Shown piece by piece: positions 864 through 26,106 of a stretch of DNA of 32,000 bases; position 1 is the stretch's first letter, and the number at the start of each line of letters is the position of its first letter. Below the pieces are notes generated by a model that was given only the letters and a program-made list of their open reading frames with translations, searched no databases and was not told the origin of the DNA. The stretch spans positions 3,603,845 to 3,635,844 of the forward strand of contig NZ_CP191777.1 in assembly GCF_050563455.1 (NCBI RefSeq), in the 5' to 3' direction. The DNA comes from Crocosphaera watsonii WH 8501 (GTDB lineage: Bacteria > Cyanobacteriota > Cyanobacteriia > Cyanobacteriales > Microcystaceae). The position numbers and the translations under genes were made by a program.

Positions 864-1108
864 GACTACTATTTTAGCAAATAGAGAGAATCCCTGTCCA
901 TTAAGATATGTTATCATATACATGGGTACAGCACCGGAGTCTAATCGCTGTATCCCTTCATAGATAAGGGTTTCAAGGCTCTATAGTAGATATGTATGGG
1001 GGAAGTTCAGATATAGAATAATCATTCAATGGTCAGATGAAGATGACTGTTTTTTAGTCGCATTACCCGATTTTCCAGGTCAATATTGGCGAACTCATGG
1101 AGATACTT

Positions 1109-2801
1109 AGGGTTTGCTGAATAAAAGCAAAACCCTATTCTTTAAAAGGTTACACCCATATTCGCGATCGCAAAAAAGATCAGCTTTGTCGGCTACAAAC
1201 CGCTATAATTGGTAGAAACACCTCCCAGTTGTTGGTCAAGAACAAATGTATCGAAAAGAGGAGCAACCTTTACCGCCCCCAGAAAAATTTGAATTACCTT
1301 TCGAGGGCAAATTGTCCCCCAATAATCGTTGGGTAATCATGGCAGAGTTGATACCTTGGGATGATTTTGAGGAAGAATGTGCTAAACTTTTTTCAGCAGA
1401 AAAAGGTGCGCCAGCCAAACTATTTAGAATGGCATTAGGGACATTAATTATTAAGGAAAAATTAGGAACAAGTGATAGAGAAACTATAGAACAGATTAGA
1501 GAAAATCCCTATCTACAATACTTTATAGGTTTAAATTGTTATCAACAAGAGCCACCACTGGAATCTTCAATGCTAGTTCATTTTAGGAAAAGAATTGATG
1601 GAGAATTGATAAACAAAATCAATAAAAAAATAGTAAAAAGAGAAATAGACAAGAGTGATAAAGAAGTAAAAAAAAAGGATTGTCTCCAAGAAAAAGGAGA
1701 AAAAATAAAAAATAAAGGTAAACTAGTTTTAGATGCGACTTGTGCGCCAGCAGACATCAAATACCCAACGGATTTAGGCATATTAAATCAAGCCAGAATT
1801 GAGACAGAAAGAATAATAGATAATCTTTATAAACCATTAAGAGTAAAATTGAGAAAAAAGCCGAGAACTTCTAGAAAAATTGCTAGAAAGGAATACTTAA
1901 AAGTAGCTAAAAAACGAAAAGTATCTTATCAAGAAAGAAGAAAAGCTATCGGGAAACAGTTAAAATACCTTAAGAAAAATTTAGGAAATATAGAAGACTT
2001 AATTCAAGCTGGGGCTTCCCAGGAAAATCTGAGTAAAAGACAGAAAAATTGTCTAGAGACTATCAAAAAAGTTTATGAACAACAACAGTCAATGTGGGAG
2101 AATAAGACCCAGAGTGTTCCTCAAAGAATTGTAAGTTTAACTCAACGGCATATTCGTCCAATAGTGAGGGGAAAAGCAGGAAAACCAATAGAGTTTGGAG
2201 CTAAACTCTCAGTAAGCTGTGTAGATAACTATGTGTTTCTAGACAAAATAAGTTGGGAAAACTTCAATGAATCTTGTCATTTAAAAGAACAAGTAGAAAA
2301 GTATAAAGAAACGTTTGGCTATTATCCCGAATCCGTCCATGTAGATAAAATTTATCGAACTAGGGAAAACAGAAATTGGTGTAAGGAAAGAGGGATAAGA
2401 ATCAGTGGTCCGAAGTTAGGAAGACCTCCGAAAAATGTCAGTGAAGAAGAAAAGAAACAAGCCCACTCCGATGAATGCTTCCGTAATGCTATTGAGGGAA
2501 AGTTTGGACAAGCTAAACGAAGATTTAGCCTAAATCTCGTGATGACAAAACTCCCTGAAACCTCCATTACATCTATTGCTATTACATTTTTAGTTGTCAA
2601 TCTTTCTAAACTTCTGAGGCAGTTTTTGTCGCTTTTTTTGTCCTTATTTACTAATAATAGAACAGGGGAACTCATCAAACCGCCTTTCATTAATTTTGAT
2701 TATACTTTAAACAATTTTTATGTACTAAAACTTATTGATTTGTCAGAAAATTCTTGGTCAAAAGTGGCATAAATTTTGGAGAAACTTTTTCAGCAAACCC
2801 T
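1109..2801 (+). mobile_element. 1693-bp IS element, copy 1 (IS5/IS1182-superfamily), TSD ACTT
   Basis: 13-bp perfect terminal inverted repeats AGGGTTTGCTGAA (1109-1121) and TTCAGCAAACCCT (2789-2801). Direct ACTT at 1105-1108 and 2802-2805. The same unit recurs at 7630-9322 and, inverted, at 22854-24546. Confidence 0.9.
1246..2772 (+). CDS. IS transposase, 508 aa (DUF772-like N-terminus plus DDE domain)
   Basis: Intact 508-aa ORF. The N-terminal LPFEGKLSPNNRWVIMAELIPWDDFE...LFRMALGTLIIKEKLGTSDRE is DUF772-like. LDATCAPADIKYPTDLGILN looks like the first DDE Asp region of IS5/IS1182-type enzymes. It lies inside the IR-bounded unit. Confidence 0.85.
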   Translation: MYRKEEQPLPPPEKFELPFEGKLSPNNRWVIMAELIPWDDFEEECAKLFSAEKGAPAKLFRMALGTLIIKEKLGTSDRETIEQIRENPYLQYFIGLNCYQQEPPLESSMLVHFRKRIDGELINKINKKIVKREIDKSDKEVKKKDCLQEKGEKIKNKGKLVLDATCAPADIKYPTDLGILNQARIETERIIDNLYKPLRVKLRKKPRTSRKIARKEYLKVAKKRKVSYQERRKAIGKQLKYLKKNLGNIEDLIQAGASQENLSKRQKNCLETIKKVYEQQQSMWENKTQSVPQRIVSLTQRHIRPIVRGKAGKPIEFGAKLSVSCVDNYVFLDKISWENFNESCHLKEQVEKYKETFGYYPESVHVDKIYRTRENRNWCKERGIRISGPKLGRPPKNVSEEEKKQAHSDECFRNAIEGKFGQAKRRFSLNLVMTKLPETSITSIAITFLVVNLSKLLRQFLSLFLSLFTNNRTGELIKPPFINFDYTLNNFYVLKLIDLSENSWSKVA

Positions 2802-2989
2802 ACTTATGAAAAAGTAGTTGCTAACGCCAAAGAAGCAATAGAATCCCTAATTATTGCTTATGAAGCTGATAACGAACCCTTACCAAAACCCTTAATTGTT
2901 AATACTATTTTATGACTCTTAAAAAATATTCAAGAAGCAATTGCACTTTATCTAGAAGTTTTGCAAGAAAGAGGTTAATTAATTCCCGA

Positions 2990-7398: not shown

Positions 7399-7629
7399 TA
7401 TTAGACATTTTTGTTAACCTATAAGTAGTTTATTTTTGCAAGGGCTAATCCTTATGTTAAAGCAGTTGAAACTCCTAGTAAGTGTTGTGTTGTACTTAAG
7501 CTTTAAGGCATAAGCCCTTGTTTTGTTATTAAACATATTAACCAACTCTTTAAGGGGATGTCAGTCCCAAATTTGAAGAAATTTTTTTTATTTTTAATTC
7601 TATTTAAGTAGATAAAAGTAGAAATAAAT

Positions 7630-9322
7630 AGGGTTTGCTGAATAAAAGCAAAACCCTATTCTTTAAAAGGTTACACCCATATTCGCGATCGCAAAAAAGA
7701 TCAGCTTTGTCGGCTACAAACCGCTATAATTGGTAGAAACACCTCCCAGTTGTTGGTCAAGAACAAATGTATCGAAAAGAGGAGCAACCTTTACCGCCCC
7801 CAGAAAAATTTGAATTACCTTTCGAGGGCAAATTGTCCCCCAATAATCGTTGGGTAATCATGGCAGAGTTGATACCTTGGGATGATTTTGAGGAAGAATA
7901 TGCTAAACTTTTTTCAGCAGAAAAAGGTGCGCCAGCCAAACTATTTAGAATGGCATTAGGGACATTAATTATTAAGGAAAAATTAGGAACAAGTGATAGA
8001 GAAACTATAGAACAGATTAGAGAAAATCCCTATCTACAATACTTTATAGGTTTAAATTGTTATCAACAAGAGCCACCACTGGAATCTTCAATGCTAGTTC
8101 ATTTTAGGAAAAGAATTGATGGAGAATTGATAAACAAAATCAATAAAAAAATAGTAAAAAGGGAAATAGACAAGAGTGATAAAGAAGTAAAAAAAAAGGA
8201 TTGTCTCCAAGAAAAAGGAGAAAAAATAAAAAATAAAGGTAAACTAATTTTAGATGCGACTTGTGCGCCAGCAGACATCAAATACCCAACGGATTTAGGC
8301 ATATTAAATCAAGCCAGAATTGAGACAGAAAGAATAATAGATAATCTTTATAAACCATTAAGAGTAAAATTGAGAAAAAAGCCGAGAACTTCTAGAAAAA
8401 TTGCTAGAAAGGAATACTTAAAAGTAGCTAAAAAACGAAAAGTATCTTATCAAGAAAGAAGAAAAGCTATCGGGAAACAGTTAAAATACCTTAAGAAAAA
8501 TTTAGGAAATATAGAAGACTTAATTCAAGCTGGGGCTTCCCTGGAAAATCTGAGTAAAAGACAGAAAAATTGTCTAGAGACTATCAAAAAAGTTTATGAA
8601 CAACAACAGTCAATGTGGGAGAATAAGACCCAGAGTGTTCCTCAAAGAATTGTAAGTTTAACTCAACCGCATATTCGTCCAATAGTGAGGGGAAAAGCAG
8701 GAAAACCAATAGAGTTTGGAGCTAAACTCTCAGTAAGCTGTGTAGATAACTATGTGTTTCTAGACAAAATAAGTTTGGAAAACTTCAATGAATCTTGTCA
8801 TTTAAAAGAACAAGTAGAAAAGTATAAAGAAACGTTTGGCTATTATCCCGAATCCGTCCATGTAGATAAAATTTATCGAACTAGGGAAAACAGAAATTGG
8901 TGTAAGGAAAGAGGGATAAGAATCAGTGGTCCGAAGTTAGGAAGACCTCCGAAAAATGTCAGTGAAGAAGAAAAGAAACAAGCCCACTCCGATGAATGCT
9001 TCCGTAATGCTATTGAGGGAAAGTTTGGACAAGCTAAACGAAGATTTAGCCTAAATCTCGTGATGACAAAACTCCCTGAAACCTCCATTACATCTATTGC
9101 TATTACATTTTTAGTTGTCAATCTTTCTAAACTTCTGAGGCAGTTTTTGTCGCTTTTTTTGTCCTTATTTACTAATAATAGAACAGGGGAACTCATCAAA
9201 CCGCCTTTTATTAATTTTGATTATACTTTAAACAATTTTTGTGTACTGAAACTTATTGATTTGTCAGAAAATTCTTGGTCAAAAGTGGCATAAATTTTGG
9301 AGAAACTTTTTCAGCAAACCCT
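7630..9322 (+). mobile_element. 1693-bp IS element, copy 2, TSD AAAT, intergenic
   Basis: IRs at 7630-7642 and 9310-9322. Direct AAAT at 7626-7629 and 9323-9326. Confidence 0.9.
7767..9293 (+). CDS. IS transposase, 508 aa (copy 2)
   Basis: Differs from the copy 1 protein at 6 residues (C/Y, V/I, Q/L, R/P, W/L, Y/C). The ORF is intact. Confidence 0.85.
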   Translation: MYRKEEQPLPPPEKFELPFEGKLSPNNRWVIMAELIPWDDFEEEYAKLFSAEKGAPAKLFRMALGTLIIKEKLGTSDRETIEQIRENPYLQYFIGLNCYQQEPPLESSMLVHFRKRIDGELINKINKKIVKREIDKSDKEVKKKDCLQEKGEKIKNKGKLILDATCAPADIKYPTDLGILNQARIETERIIDNLYKPLRVKLRKKPRTSRKIARKEYLKVAKKRKVSYQERRKAIGKQLKYLKKNLGNIEDLIQAGASLENLSKRQKNCLETIKKVYEQQQSMWENKTQSVPQRIVSLTQPHIRPIVRGKAGKPIEFGAKLSVSCVDNYVFLDKISLENFNESCHLKEQVEKYKETFGYYPESVHVDKIYRTRENRNWCKERGIRISGPKLGRPPKNVSEEEKKQAHSDECFRNAIEGKFGQAKRRFSLNLVMTKLPETSITSIAITFLVVNLSKLLRQFLSLFLSLFTNNRTGELIKPPFINFDYTLNNFCVLKLIDLSENSWSKVA

Positions 9323-9398
9323 AAATAGATGAAAGTAGAACTGAAAATTATGGGTTAAAACAAAAATAAAACTGATTTGGACTACATAAGTCTATATT

Positions 9399-11123: not shown

Positions 11124-12080
11124 TTGCAAAAATGGAATGCTCCCGATACTATGGTTATTAAATATCGACTCAAAACCTATTCTAATGATTTGTTAATTGC
11201 AGCTTGGGGCAATGAGATTTTAGTTGAGGAAATAGATACTGGAAAAATTTTGGGCTTTTTCATGCCTCCCCAACCTGGAGAAGTTTATCGCACCATTTAT
11301 GAACCGGAAACTATTATTAATTTAGCTGATTTTCCTCAATATAAAGATATCAAATTTTTTTGGCTTTGGCCCTTGGGTTTAGACTCTGATTGGGAAAGTT
11401 ATAATTTTGAAGTAGAAGAAGCTTTAGTTTGGAAAAGTATTGGTAAGTTTAAGGCAGAAGCAGCGAAAGATTGGCGAGATCATGGCTTTTCTGTACAGTT
11501 GGCTCAACAATGGTTTAAAACTACGTCTCGGTTTCATCCCTTAAATGGTAGAATGACTCCTGAGATAGCTAGAAAGTTCACTGATTTAAACTTGACAACC
11601 AATGAAGTTATAGCTTGGTTTCAATCAGGTTTAAAACCGAAAGATATTGATATCAATGCCGTTGAAAATTTAGTTAACTACGGACTCAATAGTAATGAGA
11701 TTCAAAAATGGATTAGCTATAGTGTTCCTTTAGCAGACATTCTAACTTGGATTAATCTTAATGTTGTTCCTAAACAAGCAGAAGATTGGTATAAATATAA
11801 GTTTATTTTATCAGAAGCAATTCCTTGGCATGAAATAGGTATTACAGCAGGAGAAGCTGCGATGTGGAAAGGGTTAAATATGACCGTTGCCACCGTTAAA
11901 AAATGGGGATACTTAGGCTTTTCTGCTATCTTTACTCAGGACTTTAAAAAACCAGAAATGGATATGGAAAAAGAAGTTAAGCTTTGGTTAAAAACAGGTT
12001 TAGATTTTAAGAAAATTAAGCGCTTAATCAAAAAGGGTTATAGTGCAGAAAAGGCTTATCAGGAGAGAAAAAAAGAATAG
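11124..12080 (+). CDS. hypothetical protein built from ~13-residue Trp-containing repeats
   Basis: 318-aa ORF (TTG 11124 preceded by AAGGA; alternative ATG at 11151). The C-terminal two-thirds is a ~13-aa periodic motif phi-x-x-x-E-A-x-x-W-x-x-x-G/N, e.g. LTTNEVIAWFQSG, LNSNEIQKWISYS, VPLADILTWINLN, VVPKQAEDWYKYK, FILSEAIPWHEIG, ITAGEAAMWKGLN, MTVATVKKWGYLG. Confidence 0.6.
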   Translation: MQKWNAPDTMVIKYRLKTYSNDLLIAAWGNEILVEEIDTGKILGFFMPPQPGEVYRTIYEPETIINLADFPQYKDIKFFWLWPLGLDSDWESYNFEVEEALVWKSIGKFKAEAAKDWRDHGFSVQLAQQWFKTTSRFHPLNGRMTPEIARKFTDLNLTTNEVIAWFQSGLKPKDIDINAVENLVNYGLNSNEIQKWISYSVPLADILTWINLNVVPKQAEDWYKYKFILSEAIPWHEIGITAGEAAMWKGLNMTVATVKKWGYLGFSAIFTQDFKKPEMDMEKEVKLWLKTGLDFKKIKRLIKKGYSAEKAYQERKKE

Positions 12081-12931
12081 ATTTTACTTAATATATAAAC
12101 CCGATCTTCATTGATTTTTAAGGACTCCTTAAATTAATCTTAAAACTAAGTTCAAGATTAAGAATATTGTTAAAAAAAAGTTAATAAATTGTTAAAAAAA
12201 TAGACATATTGTGGGTCATGGTATGGAGTATAGTTTGGAGAGTGAGAGATATTTCCAGAAAAAGTTTTCCAACCAATTAACAATAATCAAGGAGCCACAT
12301 GAAAATCTTTAAGGTTCTTCGAGTTACAGTGATTAAGGTCAGCGAATCACCCCTAACCTTATCTATTCAAGCAGAGGGTCTTGCAGCAACATCAGGATGG
12401 ACAAATCCTCGTTTAGATAACTCCGCCGATCCTAACCCTGATGATTCTATCTTGGAATTTAACTTTGATGCAGATAGACCATCAGGCATTTCCTTACCTC
12501 AGTTAACGCCTATTATGGCTACTGTTGATTTTGAGCCAAGTAACGGGGCCGATGCAGTAATCGTATCCGCTAGGATCAACAGCATTACTGTTCACGCAGG
12601 AGAATTTTTGAATCCTGGTGATAGTCCTGCACAACCCACTACCTTAGCATTCGGAGAAGAAGATCCAGGACCCACAACTCGTGCATTGGGAGAAGAAGGT
12701 CCAAGTCCAGACTTTACCACTCAAGCATTCGGAGAGGAAGAACCTTCTAGTCGTGCATTAGGAGAGGAAGGTCCACCTCAACCTCCTCAACCCACTACCT
12801 ACGCATTCGGAGAAGAAGAAGATCCTAGAGTTACTACCCTCGCATTAGGAGAAGAAGGTGAACCTACTAGTGCAGCTTGGCGAAAGTAATCCACCAGATT
12901 TTTACAGAAACTTTCGTGACTAGCCACGACA

Positions 12932-13513
12932 ATGTGTTTCAATGAAACTAACGGAAGAATCTCGAAGTTGATGTCCATGATAAAAGCATTGCCAATTAAC
13001 CTCTCCAACCTACAGAAAACAGTACTCCAACAAATAGTGAGAGGGACAACAAACCCCTATCGCCTTGTTAGACGAGCCAAGCTAATCTTAGCCGCAGCAT
13101 CAGGAGAGAGCAATAGTTCGATTAGTCGAAGATTAGAATTAGACCGAGTACAAGTGCGTCAGTGGCGATCGCGATGGTTTGAGGAGAGAGAAAAACTGAG
13201 TGCCGCCGAAGAACAACAGGTAACGGAGAAAGCATTAATGGTCTTGATCAAAGGAATTTTAAGCGATCGCCCAAGACCTGGAACAACAAAATCCTTTACG
13301 GTCGAACAAGTAGTCCAGATTGTAGAGATCGCTTGTGAAGAATGTGAAAAATCAGACAGACCAGTGAGCCATTGGACACCTTCAGAGTTGGCGGATGAAG
13401 CCATAAAAAGAGGAATTGTCGAAAAGATTTCCCCCCGTAGTGTGGGGCGTTTTTTAAAAAGAAGCGACATTACAACCACATCTCGTTCGTTACTGGTTAA
13501 ATGCCAAAATTGA
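12932..13513 (+). CDS. IS630-family transposase, N-terminal HTH part (orfA)
   Basis: LQKTVLQQIVRGTTNPYRLVRRAKLILAAASGESNSSISRRLELDRVQVRQWRSRW is the typical IS630 HTH region. The real start is probably an internal Met (MIKALP...). Confidence 0.75.
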   Translation: MCFNETNGRISKLMSMIKALPINLSNLQKTVLQQIVRGTTNPYRLVRRAKLILAAASGESNSSISRRLELDRVQVRQWRSRWFEEREKLSAAEEQQVTEKALMVLIKGILSDRPRPGTTKSFTVEQVVQIVEIACEECEKSDRPVSHWTPSELADEAIKRGIVEKISPRSVGRFLKRSDITTTSRSLLVKCQN

Positions 13514-14219
13514 TGATCCCTTAAAATTTAAAAAGCAAGTCAAATATATCTGTGAACTTCATCAAGAAGCTAAAACTTTGTTAGAACAAGGAATTCATTT
13601 AATTAGTACAGATGAAATGACAGGGATTCAAGCTCTTGAGAGATTATTTCCGAACAAAAGAATCAAGCCTAAACAAGTAGAAAAAATCGAATTTGAATAT
13701 GAAAGACACGGAACTTTAAGCTTGATTGCGAACTGGGATGTGGCAAGAGGAAAAGTTGTTAGTCCCTCTATTGGACCGACAAGAACAGAACAAGATTTTT
13801 CTGAACATATCCAGAGAACGATTAAGATTGATGAAAAAGCAGAATGGATTTTTATTGTAGATAAACTCAACACTCATAAATCGGAAAGCTTAGTCAAATT
13901 AGTAGCAGAAAGCTGTGGAATTACTATTGATTTGGGGAGAAAAGGAAAGGAGGGGATTTTGCAATCTATGGACAGCAGAGCAGATTTTTTATCAGATGAA
14001 TCTCATCGAATTCGCTTTGTTTATATTCCCAAACATACATCGTGGCTTAATCAAATTGAGTGTTGGTTTTCGATCTTAGTCCGGCGTTTACTCAAAAGAA
14101 TTACTGTCCGTTCAACTGAAGAACTATCCCAAAAAATTCTCAATTTTATTGATTACTTTAATCAACATTTTGCTAAGCCGTTCGTTTGGAAATTTAAGGG
14201 CTTTAAAGATCATAAGTAA
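13458..14219 (+). CDS. IS630-family transposase, DDE part (orfB, +1 frame relative to orfA)
   Basis: This frame is open from 13458 (KEATLQPHLVRYWLN...). It carries DDE-type motifs ISTDEMTGIQ, IVDKLNTHKS and PKHTSWLNQIECWFS. The junction with orfA lies at TTTTTTAAAAAG (13450-13461); A4 instead of A5 would fuse the two frames. Confidence 0.8.
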   Translation, partial: KEATLQPHLVRYWLNAKIDDPLKFKKQVKYICELHQEAKTLLEQGIHLISTDEMTGIQALERLFPNKRIKPKQVEKIEFEYERHGTLSLIANWDVARGKVVSPSIGPTRTEQDFSEHIQRTIKIDEKAEWIFIVDKLNTHKSESLVKLVAESCGITIDLGRKGKEGILQSMDSRADFLSDESHRIRFVYIPKHTSWLNQIECWFSILVRRLLKRITVRSTEELSQKILNFIDYFNQHFAKPFVWKFKGFKDHK

Positions 14220-14475
14220 CTGGTGGATTATTTTTGCTAAGCTGCACTAGTCGTGCATTAGGAGAGGAAGGTCCACCTCAACCTCCTCAACCCACAACTC
14301 GTGCAGTAGGAGAAGAAGAACCTCAATTTACTACCTACGCATTGGGAGAGGAAGAACCCTCTACTCGTGCAGCGGGAGAAGAAAGTCAACCCACAACTCG
14401 TGCAGTAGGGGAAGAACAACCTGAATTTACTACTTTAGCCATAGGAGAAGAAAGTTCTCCCTTTGGACGGTATTA

Positions 14476-15384
14476 ATGGTTGATTTAGATCCCAGCAAAA
14501 CCTTGGTGATAGCAGGTGGCCACTCAGATCCTAATTTGGGTCAATTGGTGGCCACTGCTCAACAAGCTGGTATTGTGGTGCAAGACCTTCGCCACGGTGT
14601 CAAAGATAGTCCTCCCCTATCTTGGCAAGTTAATCAAGGTTCTCTCAAGGTCAATAATCAAGAAATCAAGCCTTATGGTGCGTTCATTCGTTATGATGTT
14701 TTTGCCGGGATGGAGGACTCTCGGCCAGAGGTAGCAAAACGGGCCATGGGTTGGTATCAAACCCTGCAAGGATGGTTATTATCTGACCCGAAGATTAGAC
14801 TATTTAATCGTCATCAATCTCCCATGGGTGGCAATAAAGGTGCTACTTTGGTACTGGCACAACAATGCGGTTTAGAGATTCCTCAAACCATGATTACCAA
14901 CGAAGAAGCATCTTTACGGCAATATACTCCAGGAACAGCGATCGCTAAACCGGTGGCCGGTGGGGATTATTGTTATGGGTTAGAAGAACTTTTAAACGGG
15001 GTTGAGTTTCGTTCAGGTTGTGCTGCTAATCTTGCTATTGTCCAAAATAGACTGGTATCTCCAGAAATTAGGATTTATATTGTGGGTAATCAAGCATTGG
15101 CTTTTGAAATGCGCAGTAATTCCCTTGATTATCGAGTTAAACAAGATGCAGAGGTGATCTTTTTAGGGGAGGTTCCCTCAGAGGTGGAATCATTACGGGT
15201 TCTCACGGCTAAACTGAATATGGATTTTGGGGCCGCTGATTTTAAGAGTGATCCACAAACAGGAAAATTGGTTTTCCTCGAACTGAATACCTCTCCCATG
15301 TTTGCTCGTTTTAATCAAGTGTCTCAAGGTGCATTATGTACGGCAATGTTAAAGACACTATTGTCAATCGAAGGTAATGATTGA
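14476..15384 (+). CDS. ATP-grasp ligase (RiPP macrocyclase-like)
   Basis: 302 aa. It shows ATP-grasp features: KPVAGG, QNRLVSPEIRIYIVGNQALAFEMRSNSLDYR and FGAADFKSDPQTGKLVFLELNTSPMF (compare fgAiDl...G..vFLEiNP in MdnB/C-type enzymes). It is start/stop-coupled to the repeat-peptide gene. Confidence 0.75.
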   Translation: MVDLDPSKTLVIAGGHSDPNLGQLVATAQQAGIVVQDLRHGVKDSPPLSWQVNQGSLKVNNQEIKPYGAFIRYDVFAGMEDSRPEVAKRAMGWYQTLQGWLLSDPKIRLFNRHQSPMGGNKGATLVLAQQCGLEIPQTMITNEEASLRQYTPGTAIAKPVAGGDYCYGLEELLNGVEFRSGCAANLAIVQNRLVSPEIRIYIVGNQALAFEMRSNSLDYRVKQDAEVIFLGEVPSEVESLRVLTAKLNMDFGAADFKSDPQTGKLVFLELNTSPMFARFNQVSQGALCTAMLKTLLSIEGND

Positions 15385-15883
15385 TTTAAGGAAAGCAGTC
15401 TATTACGAATATATTGATGATGGTGTGGTTGAAATTTTCGACAAATATAAATGGGGACTGAGACGGTTAGGGGTTAACTTTTCTCAAGAATTATTAGAAA
15501 CTATCGTCTATTGTTCCCGAAATTTAGAGAATACGTTAATGGCATTTTGTTCTTGGGTTTTATGGTTAAAAAGTCGAGGAGAAAAACCCAATTCTGATAT
15601 TTTATCGGAAACATTAATCAACGCCTTAAAATCTGAGATTGGTTGGATACCTTACGATTATCAAAAGGACTTTTTACAGCAAAATCTAGACATTTTAGAA
15701 AGTCCTCAAGTTTCTTTATGGAAAACAGCAGAGAAAGAGTTAGGAGCAAGTTTAAGAAACCGAGTTATTGCTGATATCTCTGAAGAAGGTGAGCTTATTT
15801 TTAAAGTAAATGTTTTATTAACAGATGACGAAAGGGAAAAAATTGAACGGTTTAAAATTTATATTGACCAATTATTTTTATAG
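15377..15883 (+). CDS. hypothetical protein, translationally coupled to the ATP-grasp gene
   Basis: 168-aa ORF whose ATG (15377) overlaps the ATP-grasp stop by 8 nt (ATGATTGA). I recognise no motif. Confidence 0.55.
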   Translation: MIDLRKAVYYEYIDDGVVEIFDKYKWGLRRLGVNFSQELLETIVYCSRNLENTLMAFCSWVLWLKSRGEKPNSDILSETLINALKSEIGWIPYDYQKDFLQQNLDILESPQVSLWKTAEKELGASLRNRVIADISEEGELIFKVNVLLTDDEREKIERFKIYIDQLFL

Positions 15884-16043
15884 GTTCTATCCTTAAATAG
15901 GTAAATGAATGGTCCTAATAGCCCTAATTGTAATTATTATCTTTCTCCCAATAATATAACATTTTCATTTTAGTTGCGTAACATTAAATTTTAGTCAATA
16001 CAAATTGCTATAAAATAAAACATAGTCCTAGAAACTATCAATA

Positions 16044-16685
16044 ATGATTACCATTGCATTACCCAAAGGGGCATTATTATCAGATTCCATTGAACTATTT
16101 AAAGGCATTGGCTTAGATTTTAGTGCCTTTTTAGACTCCAAAAACCGTCAATTACAAATAACAGATCCTACAAATACCGCCCAAGGACTCTTAGTTAGAG
16201 CCACCGATGTACCTGTTTACGTGGAATACGGACAAGCACAACTAGGCATAGTAGGCTACGATTTGCTACTAGAAAAAAGCCCAGAAGTTGCCCATCTAGG
16301 GGACTTAAACTTTGGCGGTTGCCGGATGTCCGTAGCTGTTCCCAAAACCAGTCCCTACCAAAACCCCAGAGAATTACCCCCCAATAGCAAGATTGCCTCA
16401 AAATTTGTAAACTGTGCTAAAACTTATTTTCAACAGCTAGACCTACCGGTAGAGATAATACCCCTTTATGGTTCGGTTGAACTCGGTCCAATTACTGGAA
16501 TGTCAGAGGCGATCGTTGACTTAGTTTCCACAGGGCGTACCCTCAAAGAGAATGGACTGGTGGAGGTGGATACCCTATTCCAAAGTACGGCTCGCCTCAT
16601 TGCCCATCCCCTTAGTTATCGGTTAAATTTAGATCATCTTAATGATTTGAGCGAACAAATCAAAAATTCTGTGTCAAAATCATAA
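16044..16685 (+). CDS. hisG: ATP phosphoribosyltransferase, short form
   Basis: [12 protein letters not shown]...[27 protein letters not shown]...[14 protein letters not shown] are canonical HisG motifs. At 213 aa it is the short, HisZ-dependent type. Confidence 0.9.
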
Positions 16686-16856
16686 AAACAATAGACCCTA
16701 AAATATTATTAATGGAGGAATGACCACCAAAAAAATCAAGAACAAATCGAACAACAGTAGTTAATGCTACAAAATTCAACATTAGTAATATCGACAAAAA
16801 AGCTGTGCTAAAATCAGCTAACAAGGGCAAGTAACAGGTGATGGATTAATAAAGAT

Positions 16857-19418: not shown

Positions 19419-21059
19419 ATGGATTCTATTCGACTACAAAGATTACGTTGTTTATCAGATACCGGGGAAATTAAAATTAAACCCATTACGATACTTGTGG
19501 GAGAAAATAGTTCAGGGAAAAGTACCTTTTTGCGTTTCTTTCCTTTACTTAAGCAAAGTGTTGAGTCTAGAACCATTGGACCGGTTTTATGGAATGGTCG
19601 ATTAGTGGATTTCGGCAACTATAAAGATGCTCATCAAAAGCATTCTGAAGAGGATATTTGTTTAGAGTTTAAATTTGAAATTCCTTCCTTTCCAAAAAAT
19701 AATGCTTAAAAAAAAAATACAGACGAAGAAATAATATTCTGGTCAAGTAGAAGACCATTAATATTTAATCCCATTGATGTTTCTGTTATTTTACAGCTTT
19801 TAGAAGAGAAAAAACAACAGATTACTATAATACATAAATTGATCATAAAATTTGCCGATTCTGTAATTCAACTTGAAATAAACAAAGAGAATAAAATCTC
19901 TTGCTTTTTAGTAAATTCCTTTGATATTTTAGAAATGTTAGGTGATAAATATATTTTGTTTGATTTGGGTCATAAATTTATGTTACCGCAAGTAAGAGAA
20001 TTTTCAAATAATCAAGAGAAAATTCTCAACTTAGGAGTTTTGAACAGAGTCAATAGAACAAGATTTATTTTTCAACAATTATTCAGTAAACTTTTTCAAA
20101 TAACAAAAAATAAAGCCCATAAGTTTACATCAGAAACTACTATTTTCAAAATGATATCTTCATTTGTCATTGGAGATTCAGCAACTATGCTTCAAGATAT
20201 TAAAAATAATCCTTTTTCTACCAAAACTTGGAAGAAAAGCGTAAACTCATGGACAATAGAATCTAATGAATTTAGGCAATTTAGAGATTTAATTATCGCT
20301 AACTCAGTACCTTGGTTACTAGAAGAATGTGATGATTTATTAGCTAATTTTGCTACTAAAATTAGTTATATGGGTCCAGTTAGAGCAACAGCAGAGCGTT
20401 ACTATAGAACACAAGATTTAGCAGTAGATGAGGTAGATTATCAGGGAACTAATTTACCAATGTTTCTCCGAAATTTAACACATGGAGAATTGAAAGAATT
20501 TAGGACTTGGACACTTAATAATTTTGGTTTTGAACCTCTAATCACAACAAGTCAAGGATTAATTTCTTTAGAAATACGACCTTCTAAAGATTCTAAAGAA
20601 TCTTTTAATGTTGCTGATACAGGATTTGGTTTTTCTCAAATTTTGCCTATTATTACTCAGTTATGGTTTCTGAGTGAGTTTACTAAGACTTCTTCAAGAA
20701 TTCGTCCTCCTGGTTTCCGATATAATAGTCCTGTTATTTTCCCTATTGAACAGCCTGAATTACATTTACATCCCCGTTTACAAGGAGTTTTAGCTGAAGT
20801 ATTTGTTAAATCAATTGAAGCAGCAAAAGAAAGAGGGATTGATTTACGTTTAGTCATTGAAACCCATAGCGAAGTTCTAATTAATAAATTAGGATATCTG
20901 GTTGCAGAAAAACACATTTTACCAGAAGATATTAATATAGTATTATTTTATAAATCTGATCAATCTAAAGAAATAAAAGTCAGGACAAGTCAATTTGATT
21001 CTGAGGGTTATTTAAGCGAAGATTGGCCATTAGGATTTTTTGATATGGATCTTATTTAA
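19419..21059 (+). pseudogene. ABC/SMC-type AAA ATPase (AriA-like; AAA_15/21-type with WP-GFF C-terminus) carrying one in-frame TAA
   Basis: Track ORFs 19386-19709 and 19839-21059 are in the same frame. My translation of 19710-19838 is stop-free, so TAA 19707-19709 (followed by A-run 19708-19717) is the only interruption of a 546-codon gene. Walker A is LVGENSSGKST. The distal motifs are YMGPVRA, ADTGFGFSQILPII, IEQPELHLHP (Walker B-like), ETHSEVL and DWPLGFFD. The likely start is ATG 19419. Confidence 0.7.
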
Positions 21060-21060
21060 T

Positions 21061-22196
21061 ATGTTGATTAAAATTGATGTTTCTGTTGTCCAGAGTTTTG
21101 AAAATTCTAATTCATGGCCAGATGATCTTATTATAGCTCTTGAAAATTTAGCACTTGCAAGACGTGAAGGCAAACATTCAATAATTGCAGATTTAAACAC
21201 TTTAAAAATAATTGCAAAATGTTCAGACTTATCTAAAAATGCCAAAATTTCTTATAAAAAAATATTAAATGACAGACCTAAATTTAAAGCTTATCTTTCC
21301 CATGTCTCTAGATATATTGAAATTATTCATCCTTGTAATGTTAATAAAATAGATTCTAATTCAGGAAAAGATATTATTAAATTACCTTACACTTTTTTCA
21401 ATGATTCAGAAACAATACAAAAATCTATACTGTTGTGTAAAAATTTACAAGATACTGAATTTTATAAAATAATCGCTGAAACTTTTTGTAAATGGAAACG
21501 ATTAAATATTAAACCAAAATTTGAACCATCCTTAGGAGGAGGAAATACAATATCAACTGTATATGAGAATATTCAAAATAAGAAAAAAAGATTGTGTCTA
21601 TGTATTGTTGATAGTGATAAGTTATCTCCTAATAGTAGTCTAGGTTCTACAGCTAGAAATATTAAACAAAAAGATGATAATACTTCCGTTACGACGCTAC
21701 TTTATATTTTACCCGTTCGTGAACTTGAAAACTTAATCCCTCTTTCAATTTTATCTGAACTTATGTCTAAAAATGGAGATAGAGAAAACCCTTTTAAACA
21801 ATTAGAAAAAATTGAAGAAAGTTCAGTAAAAGAAATACGAAATTTTTTAGATATCAAAGAAGGAACAAGACTAAAAAAATAGTTAATGAACCGAGTTCAG
21901 TCAAAGATTTTTGGAAAGATAAACTTGATAAACTGCCAAATTATTCCAATGATATTGATGAATGGTGTTATGAAAATTGGTCGTGTTGTGATCCTGATCC
22001 TAAGAAAAAATCATGTAAGTGTAAGATTTCATTAGGTTTTGGTCAAAAAATCCTAGAAAATACAATTACTTATCTCAATACTCAATCTTCATTTACAATT
22101 CCTTCTATGGTTGAAGAGTCTTTACATTCTGAATGGAAAAATATTGGACAACTTATGCTAAATTGGGGCTTCGCAGATTCTCCAATTCGTGTTTAA
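21061..22196 (+). pseudogene. Toprim/DUF4435-like putative effector (AriB-like), frameshifted at an A7 run
   Basis: ATG 21061 follows the ATPase stop by 1 nt. The frame ends at TAG 21880-21882. The +1-shifted frame is open from 21879 to TAA 22194-22196 (IVNEPSSVKDFWKDKL...GFADSPIRV*). A8 instead of A7 (21873-21879) would give one 378-aa protein. Motif order: LLCKNLQDTEFYKII - GGGNTIS - LCLCIVDSDK - LPVRELENLIP. Confidence 0.5.
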
Positions 22197-22462: not shown

Positions 22463-22853
22463 TTTAACAATTAACAATGGTCATTCCGAGGTACGAGGAA
22501 TCTCCTTAACTTCTTGATCATTATAGGTTTTTGTTATCTTCTATAATTGTTGATTAAGTGCTTTAACTAATAAATGTACTGTGGTTGATGGATTATCTTG
22601 ACCAGGATTAGATTTATGATATTGTTTCAGTAACTTTTCAGAATTTCTAATAGCAGTTTCTTGTCTATCCAATAACTCATCATAGATAGTATCACTATTT
22701 TTTGTGTACTGTTTACCTAATAATGTATTTAACTTCTTCAGGTACTCTTTTCGAGGAATAGGTGAATTTAAAAACTCAAAGTGTAAGACATACCATAACT
22801 CAAAAGCTTCGTTAGAATAAGCAACCTCAAATCCCTGCTTTTCAGCCTTATTT

Positions 22854-24546
22854 AGGGTTTGCTGAAAAAGTTTCTCCAAAATTTATGCCACTTTTGACCA
22901 AGAATTTTCTGACAAATCAATAAGTTTTAGTACATAAAAATTGTTTAAAGTATAATCAAAATTAATGAAAGGCGGTTTGATGAGTTCCCCTGTTCTATTA
23001 TTAGTAAATAAGGACAAAAAAAGCGACAAAAACTGCCTCAGAAGTTTACAAAGATTGACAACTAAAAATGTAATAGCAATAGATGTAATGGAGGTTTCAG
23101 GGAGTTTTGTCATCACGAGATTTAGGCTAAATCTTCGTTTAGCTTGTCCAAACTTTCCCTCAATAGCATTACGGAAGCATTCATCGGAGTGGGCTTGTTT
23201 CTTTTCTTCTTCACTGACATTTTTCGGAGGTCTTCCTAACTTCGGACCACTGATTCTTATCCCTCTTTCCTTACACCAATTTCTGTTTTCCCTAGTTCGA
23301 TAAATTTTATCTACATGGACGGATTCGGGATAATAGCCAAACGTTTCTTTATACTTTTCTACTTGTTCTTTTAAATGACAAGATTCATTGAAGTTTTCCC
23401 AACTTATTTTTTCTAGAAACACATAGTTATCTACACAGCTTACTGAGAGTTTAGCTCCAAACTCTATTGGTTTTCCTGCTTTTCCCCTCACTATTGGACG
23501 AATATGCGGTTGAGTTAAACTTACAATTCTTTGAGGAACACTCTGGGTCTTATTCTCCCACATTGACTGTTGTTGTTCATAAACTTTTTTGATAGTCTCT
23601 AGACAATTTTTCTGTCTTTTACTCAGATTTTCCAGGGAAGCCCCAGCTTGAATTAAGTCTTCTATATTTCCTAAATTTTTCTTAAGGTATTTTAACTGTT
23701 TCCCGATAGCTTTTCTTCTTTCTTGATAAGATACTTTTCGTTTTTTAGCTACTTTTAAGTATTCCTTTCTAGCAATTTTTCTAGAAGTTCTCGGCTTTTT
23801 TCTCAATTTTACTCTTAATGGTTTATAAAGATTATCTATTATTCTTTCTGTCTCAATTCTGGCTTGATTTAATATGCCTAAATCCGTTGGGTATTTGATG
23901 TCTGCTGGCGCACAAGTCGCATCTAAAATTAGTTTACCTTTATTTTTTATTTTTTCTCCTTTTTCTTGGAGACAATCCTTTTTTTTTACTTCTTTATCAC
24001 TCTTGTCTATTTCTCTTTTTACTATTTTTTTATTGATTTTGTTTATCAATTCTCCATCAATTCTTTTCCTAAAATGAACTAGCATTGAAGATTCCAGTGG
24101 TGGCTCTTGTTGATAACAATTTAAACCTATAAAGTATTGTAGATAAGGATTTTCTCTAATCTGTTCTATAGTTTCTCTATCACTTGTTCCTAATTTTTCC
24201 TTAATAATTAATGTCCCTAATGCCATTCTAAATAGTTTGGCTGGCGCACCTTTTTCTGCTGAAAAAAGTTTAGCATATTCTTCCTCAAAATCATCCCAAG
24301 GTATCAACTCTGCCATGATTACCCAACGATTATTGGGGGACAATTTGCCCTCGAAAGGTAATTCAAATTTTTCTGGGGGCGGTAAAGGTTGCTCCTCTTT
24401 TCGATACATTTGTTCTTGACCAACAACTGGGAGGTGTTTCTACCAATTATAGCGGTTTGTAGCCGACAAAGCTGATCTTTTTTGCGATCGCGAATATGGG
24501 TGTAACCTTTTAAAGAATAGGGTTTTGCTTTTATTCAGCAAACCCT
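22854..24546 (-). mobile_element. 1693-bp IS element, copy 3 (inverted), TSD ATTT
   Basis: IRs at 22854-22866 and 24534-24546. Direct ATTT at 22850-22853 and 24547-24550. Confidence 0.9.
22883..24409 (-). CDS. IS transposase, 508 aa (copy 3)
   Basis: Intact ORF. Four residue differences from copy 2 (D/E, L/W, S/C, C/Y). Confidence 0.85.
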   Translation of the reverse strand: MYRKEEQPLPPPEKFELPFEGKLSPNNRWVIMAELIPWDDFEEEYAKLFSAEKGAPAKLFRMALGTLIIKEKLGTSDRETIEQIRENPYLQYFIGLNCYQQEPPLESSMLVHFRKRIDGELINKINKKIVKREIDKSDKEVKKKDCLQEKGEKIKNKGKLILDATCAPADIKYPTDLGILNQARIETERIIDNLYKPLRVKLRKKPRTSRKIARKEYLKVAKKRKVSYQERRKAIGKQLKYLKKNLGNIEDLIQAGASLENLSKRQKNCLETIKKVYEQQQSMWENKTQSVPQRIVSLTQPHIRPIVRGKAGKPIEFGAKLSVSCVDNYVFLEKISWENFNESCHLKEQVEKYKETFGYYPESVHVDKIYRTRENRNWCKERGIRISGPKLGRPPKNVSEEEKKQAHSDECFRNAIEGKFGQAKRRFSLNLVMTKLPETSITSIAITFLVVNLCKLLRQFLSLFLSLFTNNRTGELIKPPFINFDYTLNNFYVLKLIDLSENSWSKVA

Positions 24547-24801
24547 ATTTATTGTACTGTTAAAGTTTTGAAAATTATCTTTATCAAAAACACACCAAAC
24601 TTGATCATAGTCATCTTCTTTTTTATATTCAATTGTTTTATTTACTAAGATATCAGGATCTTTGTTCAATCCTTTAACTTTTATAACCTTACGAGGAACA
24701 CGAAAACACTCAAAGTAGTTTTTTCTGTTTCTTCTCCTCCACAAACAATTAAAAATAGTTGTTTAGGCTCTCTTGTGTTTTTCTTTCGACTTGAATATCC
24801 T

Positions 24802-26106
24802 CTAGGATTTCTCTCTGTTTTCGCCATTAGAATTAATTAGTGTAGTTAAATCTCCAATATAGGGTATTGCACCATATCGACCTTTGATGTAATCATTTTC
24901 AAAGGCAGCATCATCACTAATTTTATATTCTACTAAAGAATATAAATCACTTGCACCATATCTATCTTTTTCAGTAAACCAGATTTGATCCCTACGAAAA
25001 AGTTTAGGACTGAGTAAGTTTGTGTCATGAGTCATCACAATTAGTTGACCATTATTAGGGTTGGTTTCATTAGAGTTAAACAATTCAATAATAGTACGAC
25101 TAATTAAAGGATGTAATCTTGCATCAAATTCATCAATTACCAAAGTTTGACTATTTTTTAAAGTATCAAAAAGTGGTCCAGCTAAAGCAAAAGCTTTCTG
25201 CGTACCCTCGGATTCATCTTCTGTAAAATCAAAGGTTTCAGTAGAGATAAACTTATTCTCAGAATCAAATTTACGATGTTTGGTTGTAATCAAAGTTCCT
25301 TTTCCTCCTGAGTCTCTAAGTATCATTTTTCTAAATTCTTGAGGTAAATCATCAGAAAGTTGATCTTCAGTAACTTCTATTTGAGTAACGTTAATGTCAT
25401 CAATTCCTAAATCTAGCTTTTTAATTAAGTTGATGATTTCGTTTTTATTTTCATTCTCCATTAAACACTTTACTGTAAAAGAACGATAAGAAGAATCATT
25501 TAAACCAGAAATCACCTGTAATGAATTAGTTAACCAGTTAAGAATATCTTCCGCAATTTTAATATTAAACTGAGCAGATACAGATAAGAAAAGAGCATTA
25601 TCTCTTGTCAGTTTTTCAACTCCATTTGCTTGATATCTCTTAATAGTGTTTATTTGACCTTCTTTTCTCTCAAAAAGCTTGCTTTCCCTAACATTGGGAA
25701 TGTAATATAACCATTCTGAGACAATTTTTTTTGTAGTTGCTTCAAACCCGTAACGATATTTAATCCCATCCAATAAAAAAACAATTTCAAAGAAAGAAGG
25801 ATTATTCTCAGTTTCAAGACTCAATCTAAAAGGTTCTATGTCTATATCATCTGTGCTTTGAGTCTGTCTAGATGAATTAATCATAAACCATTTCATAAAA
25901 GCTAAAGCTTTAATGAGATTACTTTTTCCACTAGCATTTGCATCATAAATAGCAGCACTTTTGAGCAATTTTAAATCATCATCAACAGCAAAAAGATTAT
26001 CATTATGAATAGTATTATTATCAGCAGTAAGATCGGCCGCTACCATACTAAAAGTAACAACATCTTTAAATGATCTATAATTTCCTACACTGAATTCAAT
26101 TAACAT
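24802..26106 (-). CDS. AAA_21-type ATPase (RloA/AbiLi-like)
   Basis: 434 aa. MLIEFSVGNYRSFKD..., Walker A DANASGKSN, Walker B LVIDEFDARLHP and H-loop MTHDTNLL. Its 3' end overlaps the RloB-like start by 26 nt. Confidence 0.75.
   Translation of the reverse strand: MLIEFSVGNYRSFKDVVTFSMVAADLTADNNTIHNDNLFAVDDDLKLLKSAAIYDANASGKSNLIKALAFMKWFMINSSRQTQSTDDIDIEPFRLSLETENNPSFFEIVFLLDGIKYRYGFEATTKKIVSEWLYYIPNVRESKLFERKEGQINTIKRYQANGVEKLTRDNALFLSVSAQFNIKIAEDILNWLTNSLQVISGLNDSSYRSFTVKCLMENENKNEIINLIKKLDLGIDDINVTQIEVTEDQLSDDLPQEFRKMILRDSGGKGTLITTKHRKFDSENKFISTETFDFTEDESEGTQKAFALAGPLFDTLKNSQTLVIDEFDARLHPLISRTIIELFNSNETNPNNGQLIVMTHDTNLLSPKLFRRDQIWFTEKDRYGASDLYSLVEYKISDDAAFENDYIKGRYGAIPYIGDLTTLINSNGENREKS

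Follow-up and report, generated by a model that had tools for sequence, protein, structure and literature searches.

A probable two-gene graspetide cassette with plesiocin-type cores and a conserved precursor tail, split by an IS630-family element in Crocosphaera watsonii WH 8501

A precursor gene and an ATP-grasp gene separated from each other by no intergenic DNA

We analyzed a 32,000-nucleotide (nt) stretch of the Crocosphaera watsonii WH 8501 genome (contig NZ_CP191777.1, positions 3,603,845 to 3,635,844 of the forward strand), hereafter the window, in which positions are counted from the first letter. The locus under study consists of a gene for a repeat-rich precursor, interrupted by an insertion sequence (IS), and an overlapping downstream gene for a 302-amino-acid (aa) ATP-grasp protein. 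We conclude, with a probability of about 0.75, that the two genes form a graspetide cassette of the plesiocin core type that is inactivated in this genome by an IS630-family element inserted at core 7 of 12. An earlier reading of the window, made from its letters alone (the sequence-only reading), had proposed a plesiocin-like graspetide locus with a 12-core precursor, and its claims are taken up below where the results bear on them.

The open reading frame (ORF) that starts at 12299 reads into the insertion and stops at 12889, as seen both in the ORF listing and by direct reading. Joining 12299-12869 to 14250-14476 gives 798 nt that encode a repaired precursor of 265 aa. This protein contains exactly 12 units of the form [ST][ST]xAxGEE at a spacing of 10 to 16 residues, and every one of the 12 tandem units listed in the sequence-only reading was confirmed at its coordinates. 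Composition-preserving shuffling of the 153-aa repeat region (20,000 shuffles) yielded a mean of 0.002 matches and a maximum of 1. The split codon is that of Ser191, within unit 7, and marks the point of insertion. The stop codon of the precursor (14474-14476) shares its last base with the ATG of ORF 14476-15384 in the sequence TAATG; the ORF listing bears out this overlap, which had also been noted earlier.

An uninterrupted allele was found in a public metagenome contig (L005). Its precursor (P0121) is 100% identical to the repaired protein over all 265 aa, and the contig encodes this precursor, the 302-aa enzyme, and the next ORF, all without the IS. The contig and the window are 99.8% identical at 12208-12871 and 99.4% identical at 14246-15739, with the junction exactly at a TA dinucleotide. 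Because L005 encodes the identical protein without the IS, the repair of the precursor ORF is not hypothetical, and the claim that a single ORF was split by an IS holds.

The 302-aa protein resembles graspetide macrocyclases

Pfam returned no match at E < 0.1 for either the enzyme or the precursor, and the ATP-grasp identity of the 302-aa protein therefore needed testing with NCBIfam, the PDB, and structure prediction. The best NCBIfam match was TIGR04187, "ATP-grasp ribosomal peptide maturase" (5.8e-19), followed by MvdD (8.5e-11), MvdC (2.2e-9), and rimK_fam (2.9e-6). A phmmer search of PDB sequences with the enzyme returned graspetide enzymes only, with PsnB (7DRM) the best at 4e-11. A profile of 36 family members also placed PsnB first (3.6e-21), ahead of AMdnB, MdnB, CdnC, PruB (9BOU), and MdnC, and matched no RimK or other ATP-grasp protein in the PDB at E ≤ 1. 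The AlphaFold2 model of the enzyme had a predicted local distance difference test score (pLDDT) of 89.8 and a predicted template modeling score of 0.88. When this model was searched with Foldseek, PsnB chains came first (4.6e-16), then PruB, CdnC, MdnC, and AMdnB, and the matches to LysX, ArgX, and RimK were four to five orders of magnitude weaker than those to PsnB (6e-12 to 5e-11).

Conserved residues were compared in an alignment of native PsnB (P0380), 11 PsnB relatives, and 30 members of the family of the window enzyme. Arg72 and Arg213 of PsnB, which bind the ring-forming Glu and are reported to be conserved across all graspetide groups (bioRxiv 10.1101/2021.03.09.434688), align with the invariant residues R72 and R199, and the nucleotide-binding Lys172 of PsnB aligns with the invariant K158. 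Sequence comparison and the predicted fold support the assignment of the 302-aa protein as a graspetide-type ATP-grasp macrocyclase. On the point that the sequence-only reading had put up for checking, a macrocyclase of ribosomally made peptides that are modified after translation (RiPPs) or a RimK-type ligase, the maturase models, the PDB profile, and Foldseek all favor the graspetide macrocyclase.

An invariant segment of the enzyme, ELNTSPMFARF (residues ~269-279, window 15280-15310), resembles the microviridin leader motif PFFARFL; its PsnB equivalent is ELNASAMFRGF. The idea that SPMFARF is a built-in mimic of this leader was rejected because PsnB carries SAMFRGF at the same place. Judging by the alignment, the segment is most likely the ordinary Mg-binding segment of ATP-grasp enzymes, of the form ELNxSPxF.

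The gene pair and its cores recur across phyla

At least 417 enzyme homologues and at least 314 precursor homologues were found. The enzymes are 87-99% identical to the window enzyme in Crocosphaera, 57-71% in other cyanobacteria (Leptothoe, Okeania, Symploca, and others), and about 55% in Acidobacteria, Actinomycetota, and others. The order precursor-then-enzyme is kept in cyanobacteria, Acidobacteria, Actinomycetota, and alpha- and gamma-proteobacteria, and besides these two genes, no gene was conserved across the loci examined. A metagenome scan supplied 74 loci that were selected by the enzyme and had enough upstream sequence. A co-oriented precursor ORF lay upstream at 71 of them and was missing at three, a count slightly conditioned on the features counted because the picking of upstream ORFs required a core or a tail. 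All genome loci examined had the repeat peptide as well, and orthologous loci therefore keep it, as expected for a graspetide precursor.

In a logo of 940 cores, the first two positions are Thr at frequencies of.91 and.99, the fourth is Ala (.76), the fifth is hydrophobic, the sixth is Gly (.98), and the last two are always Glu (1.0 each). The third position varies most (L.47, M.13, R.11, F.08, and Q.07). Chains in the logo set have 1 to 17 cores, and one 5'-truncated metagenome ORF (L077 3-1142) has 23. The high core count, which the sequence-only reading had singled out as distinctive, did not survive this comparison, since 12 cores are ordinary in a family that ranges from 1 to at least 23. 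In many homologues, the stretch from the last TTxAxGEE core to the tail holds a second type of unit, (T/I/M)T(D/N)P(R/Q)xDDP, with the same eight-residue register as the cores, Asp-Asp acceptors, and a Pro-Arg loop (P0159, P0163, P0165, P0178, and L006 6286-6939); the window precursor lacks it. A PDB search with the core array, aimed at the PsnA2 peptide, returned only spurious designed alpha-repeat proteins.

The enzyme belongs to a sister clade of PsnB

The window enzyme is 27% identical to PsnB over the C-terminal 193 residues and 23% identical over 285 aligned positions. The lists of the top 120 homologues of the two enzymes do not overlap, and the Pfam RimK family (PF08443) matches the family of PsnB, not that of the window enzyme. 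The pairwise E value with PsnB (~1e-16) is far weaker than the alignment score of 70 used in the published sequence similarity network (Ramesh 2021; Carter 2026), in which clusters form by chains of links. Arg101, reported to be conserved only in Group 2a enzymes (bioRxiv 10.1101/2021.03.09.434688), aligns with A87 in the window enzyme and is S, A, N, or T across its family. In the leader pocket, seven PsnB residues are replaced: Tyr171 by Ala157, Ile193 by Arg179, Leu196 by Cys182, Val201 by Ala187, Phe203 by Val189, Arg181 by Tyr167, and Arg192 by Phe178. Four of these replacements are invariant in the clade of the window enzyme, and three vary among a few residues.

The precursors differ in their known leader motif. 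No N-terminal motif of the LFIEDL type was present in the window precursor or its homologues. The precursor at the PsnB locus (L014) reads MSNDKKNNELKELFIEDLGQVTGG...TTLALGEE..., and that of a Pyxidicoccus relative in the PsnB clade (L015) has LFVQDL and one core; both have an N-terminal LF(I/V)xDL motif and lack a C-terminal tail. These loci carry export genes, a resistance-nodulation-division (RND)-type adaptor gene near L014 and a C39 ATP-binding cassette (ABC) transporter in L015, whereas none occur in the clade of the window. By sequence, the enzyme is placed in a sister clade of PsnB and not in Group 2a, because identity is only 23-27%, Arg101 is absent, and every leader-pocket residue is replaced. 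Of the earlier plesiocin-like assignment, the core type and the kinship of the macrocyclase stand, but the enzyme lies in a clade separate from that of PsnB and has a different leader pocket.

Precursors share cores but not N-terminal parts

The window precursor has a nonrepetitive N terminus of ~112 aa before its cores. AlphaFold2, run with 71 homologues, predicted a seven-stranded all-beta domain for residues 1-110 (pLDDT 91-98) and disorder for residues 113-265. The domain matched no Pfam or NCBIfam family, and its best fold match in the PDB had E = 1.2. An exhaustive phmmer search found it in 269 representative proteins at E ≤ 1e-3. Besides the precursors, these include stand-alone proteins of ~100-130 aa, forms with signal or lipoprotein peptides, and proteins of ~560-710 aa with signal or lipoprotein peptides and four to five tandem copies, all without cores (P0247, P0252, P0258, P0250, and P0312 are examples of the tandem and stand-alone forms). 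Because stand-alone and tandem forms occur without cores, the sequence comparisons indicate that the beta domain is an independent, unnamed, and widespread family that has been joined to a module of cores plus tail. As modeled, it seems unlike the unstructured leaders of the classical kind. A kinship with PrcB_C, suspected from a resemblance in motif, was rejected (0 of 71 sequences matched PrcB_C, and the hhalign probability was 0.2%).

Across the clade, the N-terminal parts of the precursors are unrelated to one another. The ~110-aa domain of the window precursor has homologous types B and C (hhalign 91%, 1e-6), and PrcB_C and tyrosinase domains also occur in this position. Two such proteins are P0235, with 428 aa, a tyrosinase domain at its N terminus, 7-10 cores, and the tail GGPFGRF, and P0198, in which a PrcB_C domain accompanies 13 cores and a tail. 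Other precursors have double-glycine leaders: that of L004 has the GG leader MIQELNQIEIDQISGG, and 14 loci have a GG/GA-type leader, MKELDxQQTExVTGA. Only 9-17 residues precede the first core in L007, L012, and L013, the 52-aa precursor of L007 being MTKNTLNNF-STLALGEE...GGPFGAY. A single TTxxxEE-type core follows a longer N terminus in L010 and L011.

A C-terminal tail is the noncore feature common to the precursors

The sequence PFGx[FYRLW] with at most one further residue ends 104 of 120 precursor homologues; in 98 of these 104 exactly two residues follow PFG, and the last residue is F, Y, or R in 97. Because the query that retrieved this sample contained the tail, the count was repeated on the loci chosen by the enzyme alone. 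There, the ending [PA][FLM]Gx[FYW]-COOH was present at 70 of 74 loci (70 of the 71 with a precursor ORF), with 55 strict PFG tails and 14 of a "SALGSF"-type variant. The sole exception among the 71 precursors is PFERY in metagenome contig L016. The tail is present in all genome loci (L001-L004, L006, L007, and L010-L013), and P261, F262, and G263 of the window precursor are invariant or nearly so in alignment A1. No mention of the tail motif was found in the literature searched.

These observations suggest, at what we consider roughly even odds, that the enzyme finds its precursor by way of the invariant C-terminal tail, which would be a natural "follower," and not by way of an N-terminal leader. 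The tail is the only noncore feature common to all precursor architectures, its position is fixed relative to the free C terminus, and the leader pocket of the enzyme is remodeled compared with that of PsnB. Since no other gene is conserved by the pair, the enzyme is the only co-inherited candidate reader of the tail. The tail also resembles known graspetide recognition peptides, namely, RPFG of ThfA (PMC13003496) and PFFARFL of microviridins (PMC8939145), and an engineered C-terminal leader works for another graspetide synthetase (PMC13003496). A wider proposal, which we hold more tentatively and put at somewhat under an even chance, is that the clade comprises natural follower-guided synthetases that would install from 1 to at least 23 hairpins C-terminal to almost anything, the carriers including folded domains (the unnamed beta domain, PrcB_C, and tyrosinase), and that would yield cross-linked proteins rather than leader-cleaved peptides. 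The tail may be read through the remodeled leader pocket, including the clade-specific Arg179. In the window genome, the 80-aa ORF that covers the 3' part of the precursor gene, with 5.5 cores and the tail, is still coupled to the enzyme. Given its resemblance to the short precursors found in nature, its product might still serve as a substrate if the ORF is transcribed.

Points against, and alternative explanations

Several points weigh against these conclusions. All NCBIfam scores of the enzyme are far below the curated cut-offs (68 vs 350 bits), and we therefore regard it as a divergent member of the graspetide synthetases; its low identity to PsnB and the conditioning of the 71-of-74 count, both given above, are further points of this kind. 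The precursor is split in the window genome, and therefore the full product cannot be made there. For every member of the family, esterification, topology, and inhibition rest on analogy. As for the tail, the last core of the window precursor is only two residues away from it, an awkward arrangement should the binding site of the tail lie far from the active site. A weak N-terminal pattern, K/N-x-L-x-A/N-hydrophobic, recurs among the short acidobacterial precursors and may be a minimal N-terminal recognition signal, and at the 14 loci with both a GG/GA-type leader and a SALGSF tail, either end could carry recognition.

The best-surviving alternative, which we consider unlikely, accepts the graspetide system but takes the N-terminal domain or a short N-terminal segment as the true leader, leaving export, sorting, stability, or protease docking to the tail. 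All characterized graspetides use N-terminal leaders, the N-terminal domain is strongly conserved in 74 of 120 precursor homologues, and microviridin-type follower sequences are dispensable for modification (PMC12848669); the weak N-terminal pattern of the short precursors and the abutment of tail and last core in the window precursor fit as well. However, the partners of homologous enzymes with 51-57% identity include precursors entirely without the domain (L004, L007, L012, and L013), all of which have the tail, and the domain family also occurs alone and in tandem without cores. No transporter or sorting gene is conserved by the pair, which leaves the enzyme as the one co-inherited candidate for reading the tail.

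Quite unlikely in our estimate is a second alternative, that the product is a modified protein whose N-terminal domain is functional cargo and permanently carries the hairpin array as a protease-inhibiting or protease-resistant appendage, with no removal of a leader. The absence of any protease or peptidase-transporter gene at the domain-bearing loci agrees with it, as do the fusion of the cores-plus-tail module to unrelated folded domains (beta domain, PrcB_C, and tyrosinase), the very confident model of the N-terminal domain, and the lack of a GG cleavage motif between this domain and the first core in the window precursor. The cargo role is purely putative, however, the short GG-leader precursors that go with enzymes of this clade resemble ordinary RiPPs destined for export, and housekeeping proteases could trim the product.

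We regard as very improbable that the 302-aa protein is an amino-acid ligase of the RimK/LysX type that extends or loads the C terminus of the upstream protein. In its favor, RimK, LysX, and ArgX have the same fold, come next in the Foldseek ranking, and work on the C-terminal tails of substrate proteins; the precursor tail has a fixed place at the very C terminus, and several database sources label homologues of the enzyme "RimK-type." Yet the family profile found six graspetide macrocyclases in the PDB and none of these three ligases, and the RiPP maturase models scored 13 orders of magnitude better than rimK_fam. Moreover, it is the TTxAxGEE core, the same as in the substrate of PsnB, that forms the invariant feature co-varying with the enzyme, and the last residue of the tail is Phe or Tyr instead of the acidic one that RimK/LysX-type ligases use. 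The chance that the repeat ORF encodes no more than an ordinary Pro/Glu-rich protein of low complexity, with a coincidental ATP-grasp neighbor, is negligible: its repeat region is predicted to be disordered and matches no family, but the two genes stay adjacent in at least five phyla, in neighborhoods that are otherwise unrelated, stop and start codons overlap, unit positions 1, 2, 6, 7, and 8 are 91-100% fixed while position 3 varies, and 12 units stand against 0.002 expected.

The insertion and the state of the cassette in Crocosphaera

The 1,378-bp element that splits the precursor gene is a member of the IS630 family, an assignment based on its HTH and DDE_3 ORFs, short inverted repeats, and TA duplication. 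Its ends are 28-bp imperfect inverted repeats, GTGCAGCTTGGCGAAAGTAATCCACCAG at 12870-12897 and a near-complement at 14220-14247, and its transposase is encoded in two frames, an HTH ORF at 12932-13513 (Pfam HTH_32, 1.2e-9) and a DDE_3 ORF at 13578-14219 (2.9e-21). The element is present once in the window and absent from the otherwise 99.4-99.8% identical L005. The precursor gene is thus a pseudogene in the window genome.

The same disrupted allele was found in metagenome contig Ga0064014_10014 (L016; window 12676-17169), which is 99.4% identical over 4,506 bp, including the IS. In this contig, G14466A turns the family-invariant glycine of the tail into Glu (PFGRY to PFERY), which is consistent with relaxed selection after disruption. 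In Crocosphaera sp. Alani8 (L003 5261-6540), the syntenic cassette decayed differently: the precursor start and the first 39 codons are deleted, and the ATP-grasp gene breaks off at residue 179, where it is fused to the C-terminal half of the 168-aa ORF that follows it in the window. Intact cassettes occur in other Crocosphaera-like bins, with 14 cores in L001 and 12-16 in L017-L019. Precursors P0121-P0131 have identical N-terminal domains and C termini and differ in core number (4, 5, 6, 7, 8, 9, 10, and 12), a spread that could reflect fast expansion and contraction of the array or collapse of repeats in short-read assemblies. The cassette is accessory in Crocosphaera-like strains and has been broken repeatedly, by IS insertion, deletions, and mutation of the tail.

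Proposed biosynthesis and product

Ester chemistry, topology, and inhibitor function of the product are inferred here by analogy with plesiocin. In plesiocin, the core T31-T32-x-A-I-G-E37-E38 carries two Thr-Glu lactones (bioRxiv 10.1101/2021.03.09.434688). The 265-aa precursor made from an intact allele would have the folded beta domain (~108 aa), 12 TTxAxGEE cores in a disordered array, and the PFGRY tail. The translationally coupled 302-aa ATP-grasp enzyme would then use ATP to phosphorylate both Glu residues of each core, E7 and then E8, and Thr or Ser hydroxyls would displace the phosphate to form two nested lactones per core, the inner between T2 and E7 and the outer between T1 and E8. 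The full product could thereby contain up to 24 esters in 12 hairpins.

By the same analogy, each hairpin would be a loop that tightly inhibits a serine protease, with a specificity probably set by the hypervariable third residue of the core. The plesiocin variant Psn-LLLR gains trypsin inhibition (PMC10125368). Its name suggests that one residue per core, Leu in native plesiocin and taken here as position 3, sets the specificity. Position 3 in the window precursor reads L, R, Q, R, Y, L, R, R, Y, R, R, and L from core 1 to core 12, and from these mixed residues the array would be naturally multi-specific, with heads of the trypsin type and of the chymotrypsin/elastase type.

Neighboring genes and feature coordinates

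The features of the locus are collected in Table 1. The upstream neighbor of the locus is a gene for a dihydrolipoamide acetyltransferase (E2), and the neighborhood is housekeeping in character; downstream lie genes that we take from their sequences to be hisG and the gene for a Clp-type ATPase. The 168-aa ORF that overlaps the end of the enzyme gene is probably co-transcribed with it. It occurs only in the close Crocosphaera relatives L005 and, in part, L003 and is not downstream of the enzyme in L001, L002, L004, and L006-L013. The Trp-rich 318-aa ORF between the E2 gene and the precursor gene has apparent internal repeats, matches no Pfam or NCBIfam family, and has no counterpart at any related locus, the syntenic L003 included. 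Both ORFs were rejected as members of the cluster, since neither is conserved outside close relatives. A scan of 12050-16100 for promoters and terminators was uninformative, the counts being those expected from shuffled sequence.

Elsewhere in the window are three copies of a ~1.7-kb IS, 99.4-99.6% identical and each encoding a 508-aa transposase (Pfam DDE_Tnp_1_2 plus DUF772); together with the IS630-family element, they mark a very IS-rich genome. One copy is flanked by two AAA_15/AAA_21 ATPase genes of an AbiEii-like family. One of these is followed by an overlapping 280-aa ORF without a family, and from their sequences the two may be a defense-type gene pair.

Table 1. Coordinates of features in the 32,000-nt window
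Feature	Position	Strand	Remarks
~1.7-kb IS, copy 1	1108..2802	+	
~1.7-kb IS, copy 2	7613..9327	+	
318-aa ORF	11124..12080	+	between E2 acetyltransferase gene and precursor gene
Precursor gene, 5' part	12299..12869	+	residues 1-190 and first base of codon 191; identical to P0121 of L005
N-terminal folded domain of precursor	12299..12622	+	residues 1 to ~108; predicted all-beta, 7 strands
Cores 1-6 with Pro-rich spacers	12638..12856	+	TTLAFGEE, TTRALGEE, TTQAFGEE, SSRALGEE, TTYAFGEE, TTLALGEE
Core 7, start	12866..12869	+	Thr190 and first base of Ser191
TA target-site duplication	12868-12869 (left), 14248-14249 (right)	+	flanks the IS; from alignment with L005
IS630-family insertion sequence	12870..14247	+	1378 bp; HTH and DDE_3 ORFs, inverted repeats, TA duplication
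TTG-initiated 80-aa ORF	14234..14476	+	spans precursor 3' part
Precursor gene, 3' part	14250..14476	+	remainder of core 7 (to 14269), cores 8-12 (14294-14452), tail, stop
C-terminal tail Pro-Phe-Gly-Arg-Tyr	14459..14473	+	residues 261-265
ATP-grasp ligase gene, intact, 302 aa	14476..15384	+	start overlaps precursor stop
168-aa ORF ATGATTGA	15377..15883	+	8-nt overlap with the end of the ATP-grasp gene; matches no family in Pfam or NCBIfam
AAA_15/AAA_21 ATPase gene	19839..21882	+	AbiEii-like family
~1.7-kb IS, copy 3	22849..24562	-	
AAA_15/AAA_21 ATPase gene	24802..26106	-	AbiEii-like family

Significance and comparison with known systems

The clade is large and has no curated model, with its several hundred enzyme and precursor homologues spread over five or more phyla. 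If the tail is the recognition element, it would be a natural counterpart of the hand-built C-terminal leaders (PMC13003496) and would leave the N terminus free for fusion. The tag has five residues, and one small enzyme would handle up to two dozen cores. The family may offer ready-made arrays of multi-specific protease inhibitors, with Arg, Leu, Tyr, and Gln heads in one chain, and possibly a tool for cyclizing segments that have been appended to whole proteins; should the follower hypothesis be true, it would be useful for RiPP enzymology and engineering. For the window genome itself the biological message is modest, that of an accessory trait often broken in Crocosphaera-like strains.

No characterized member of the clade was found in the literature searched, and the groupings of Lee 2020 and Ramesh 2021 (e.g., "Group 2b") may cover it. 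The statement that no characterized cyanobacterial example with this core count or leader is known is upheld to that extent, but a homologue from Moorea producens 3L (EGJ32583.1) is already present in a published supplement. This protein has the same architecture, with an MKVFRV...SGWTNPRLDNS N-terminal domain, ~20 TTxAxGEE cores, and an SSPFGWY end. In the supplement of Makarova et al. 2022, which lists 174 clusters of predicted graspetide precursors, it appears as the singleton "cluster10071"; the main text does not discuss it and gives no family description, tail, N-terminal domain family, or experiment (PMC8939145).

Among the other systems compared, RcpA/RcpB of Rheinheimera (group 2) is similar in its TTxxxxEE cores and single ATP-grasp enzyme, and up to five dehydrations by mass spectrometry and protease inhibition were reported (PMC11626197). 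Compared by description only, it differs in having few cores and an N-terminal GG leader that is cut by a dedicated peptidase-transporter, RcpC (PMC11626197). Multi-core microviridin precursors are cyanobacterial like that of the window, with several cores per polypeptide and one distributive ATP-grasp enzyme (PMC5934393); unlike the window system, they have a cage core, TxKxPSDx(D/E)(D/E), two ligases (ester and amide), and an N-terminal PFFARFL leader. The new long-repeat graspetide groups 34 and 35 (Carter 2026), considered as possible homes for the clade, were set aside as different families on the evidence of the accessible part of that report.

The fuscimiditide pair ThfA/ThfB is close in another respect, since its recognition element is a short Pro-Phe-Gly peptide, RPFG, and in a "leader-to-follower" construct, the ATP-grasp enzyme still works with this element placed C-terminal to multiple cores (PMC13003496). 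That C-terminal element is man-made and was called unnatural, whereas in the clade of the window the C-terminal tag is natural and conserved; ThfB also belongs to group 13, with another core and topology and an extra aspartimide step (PMC13003496). In the accessible part of the 2026 RODEO update, C-terminal leaders are described only as engineered (PMC13003496).

Plesiocin, made by PsnA2/PsnB of Plesiocystis pacifica, is the closest comparison. The cores of the window have its register, as the sequence-only reading had recognized from the TTxxxxEE motif, and plesiocin TTxAIGEE compares with TTLAIGEE in the last core of the window. In both systems, one precursor carries the cores in tandem and its gene is followed directly by a single ATP-grasp gene, and PsnB is the nearest solved relative of the window enzyme by sequence and fold. 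The precursor at the PsnB locus, however, has 77 aa, an N-terminal LFIEDL...GG leader, four cores, and no C-terminal tail, whereas that of the window has 265 aa, a folded N-terminal domain, 12 cores, and the PFGRY tail. What is known already is the plesiocin-type (TTxxxxEE) core chemistry; what differs is the distinct enzyme clade and the precursor logic, which by sequence is a folded N-terminal domain or none, plus an invariant C-terminal tag.

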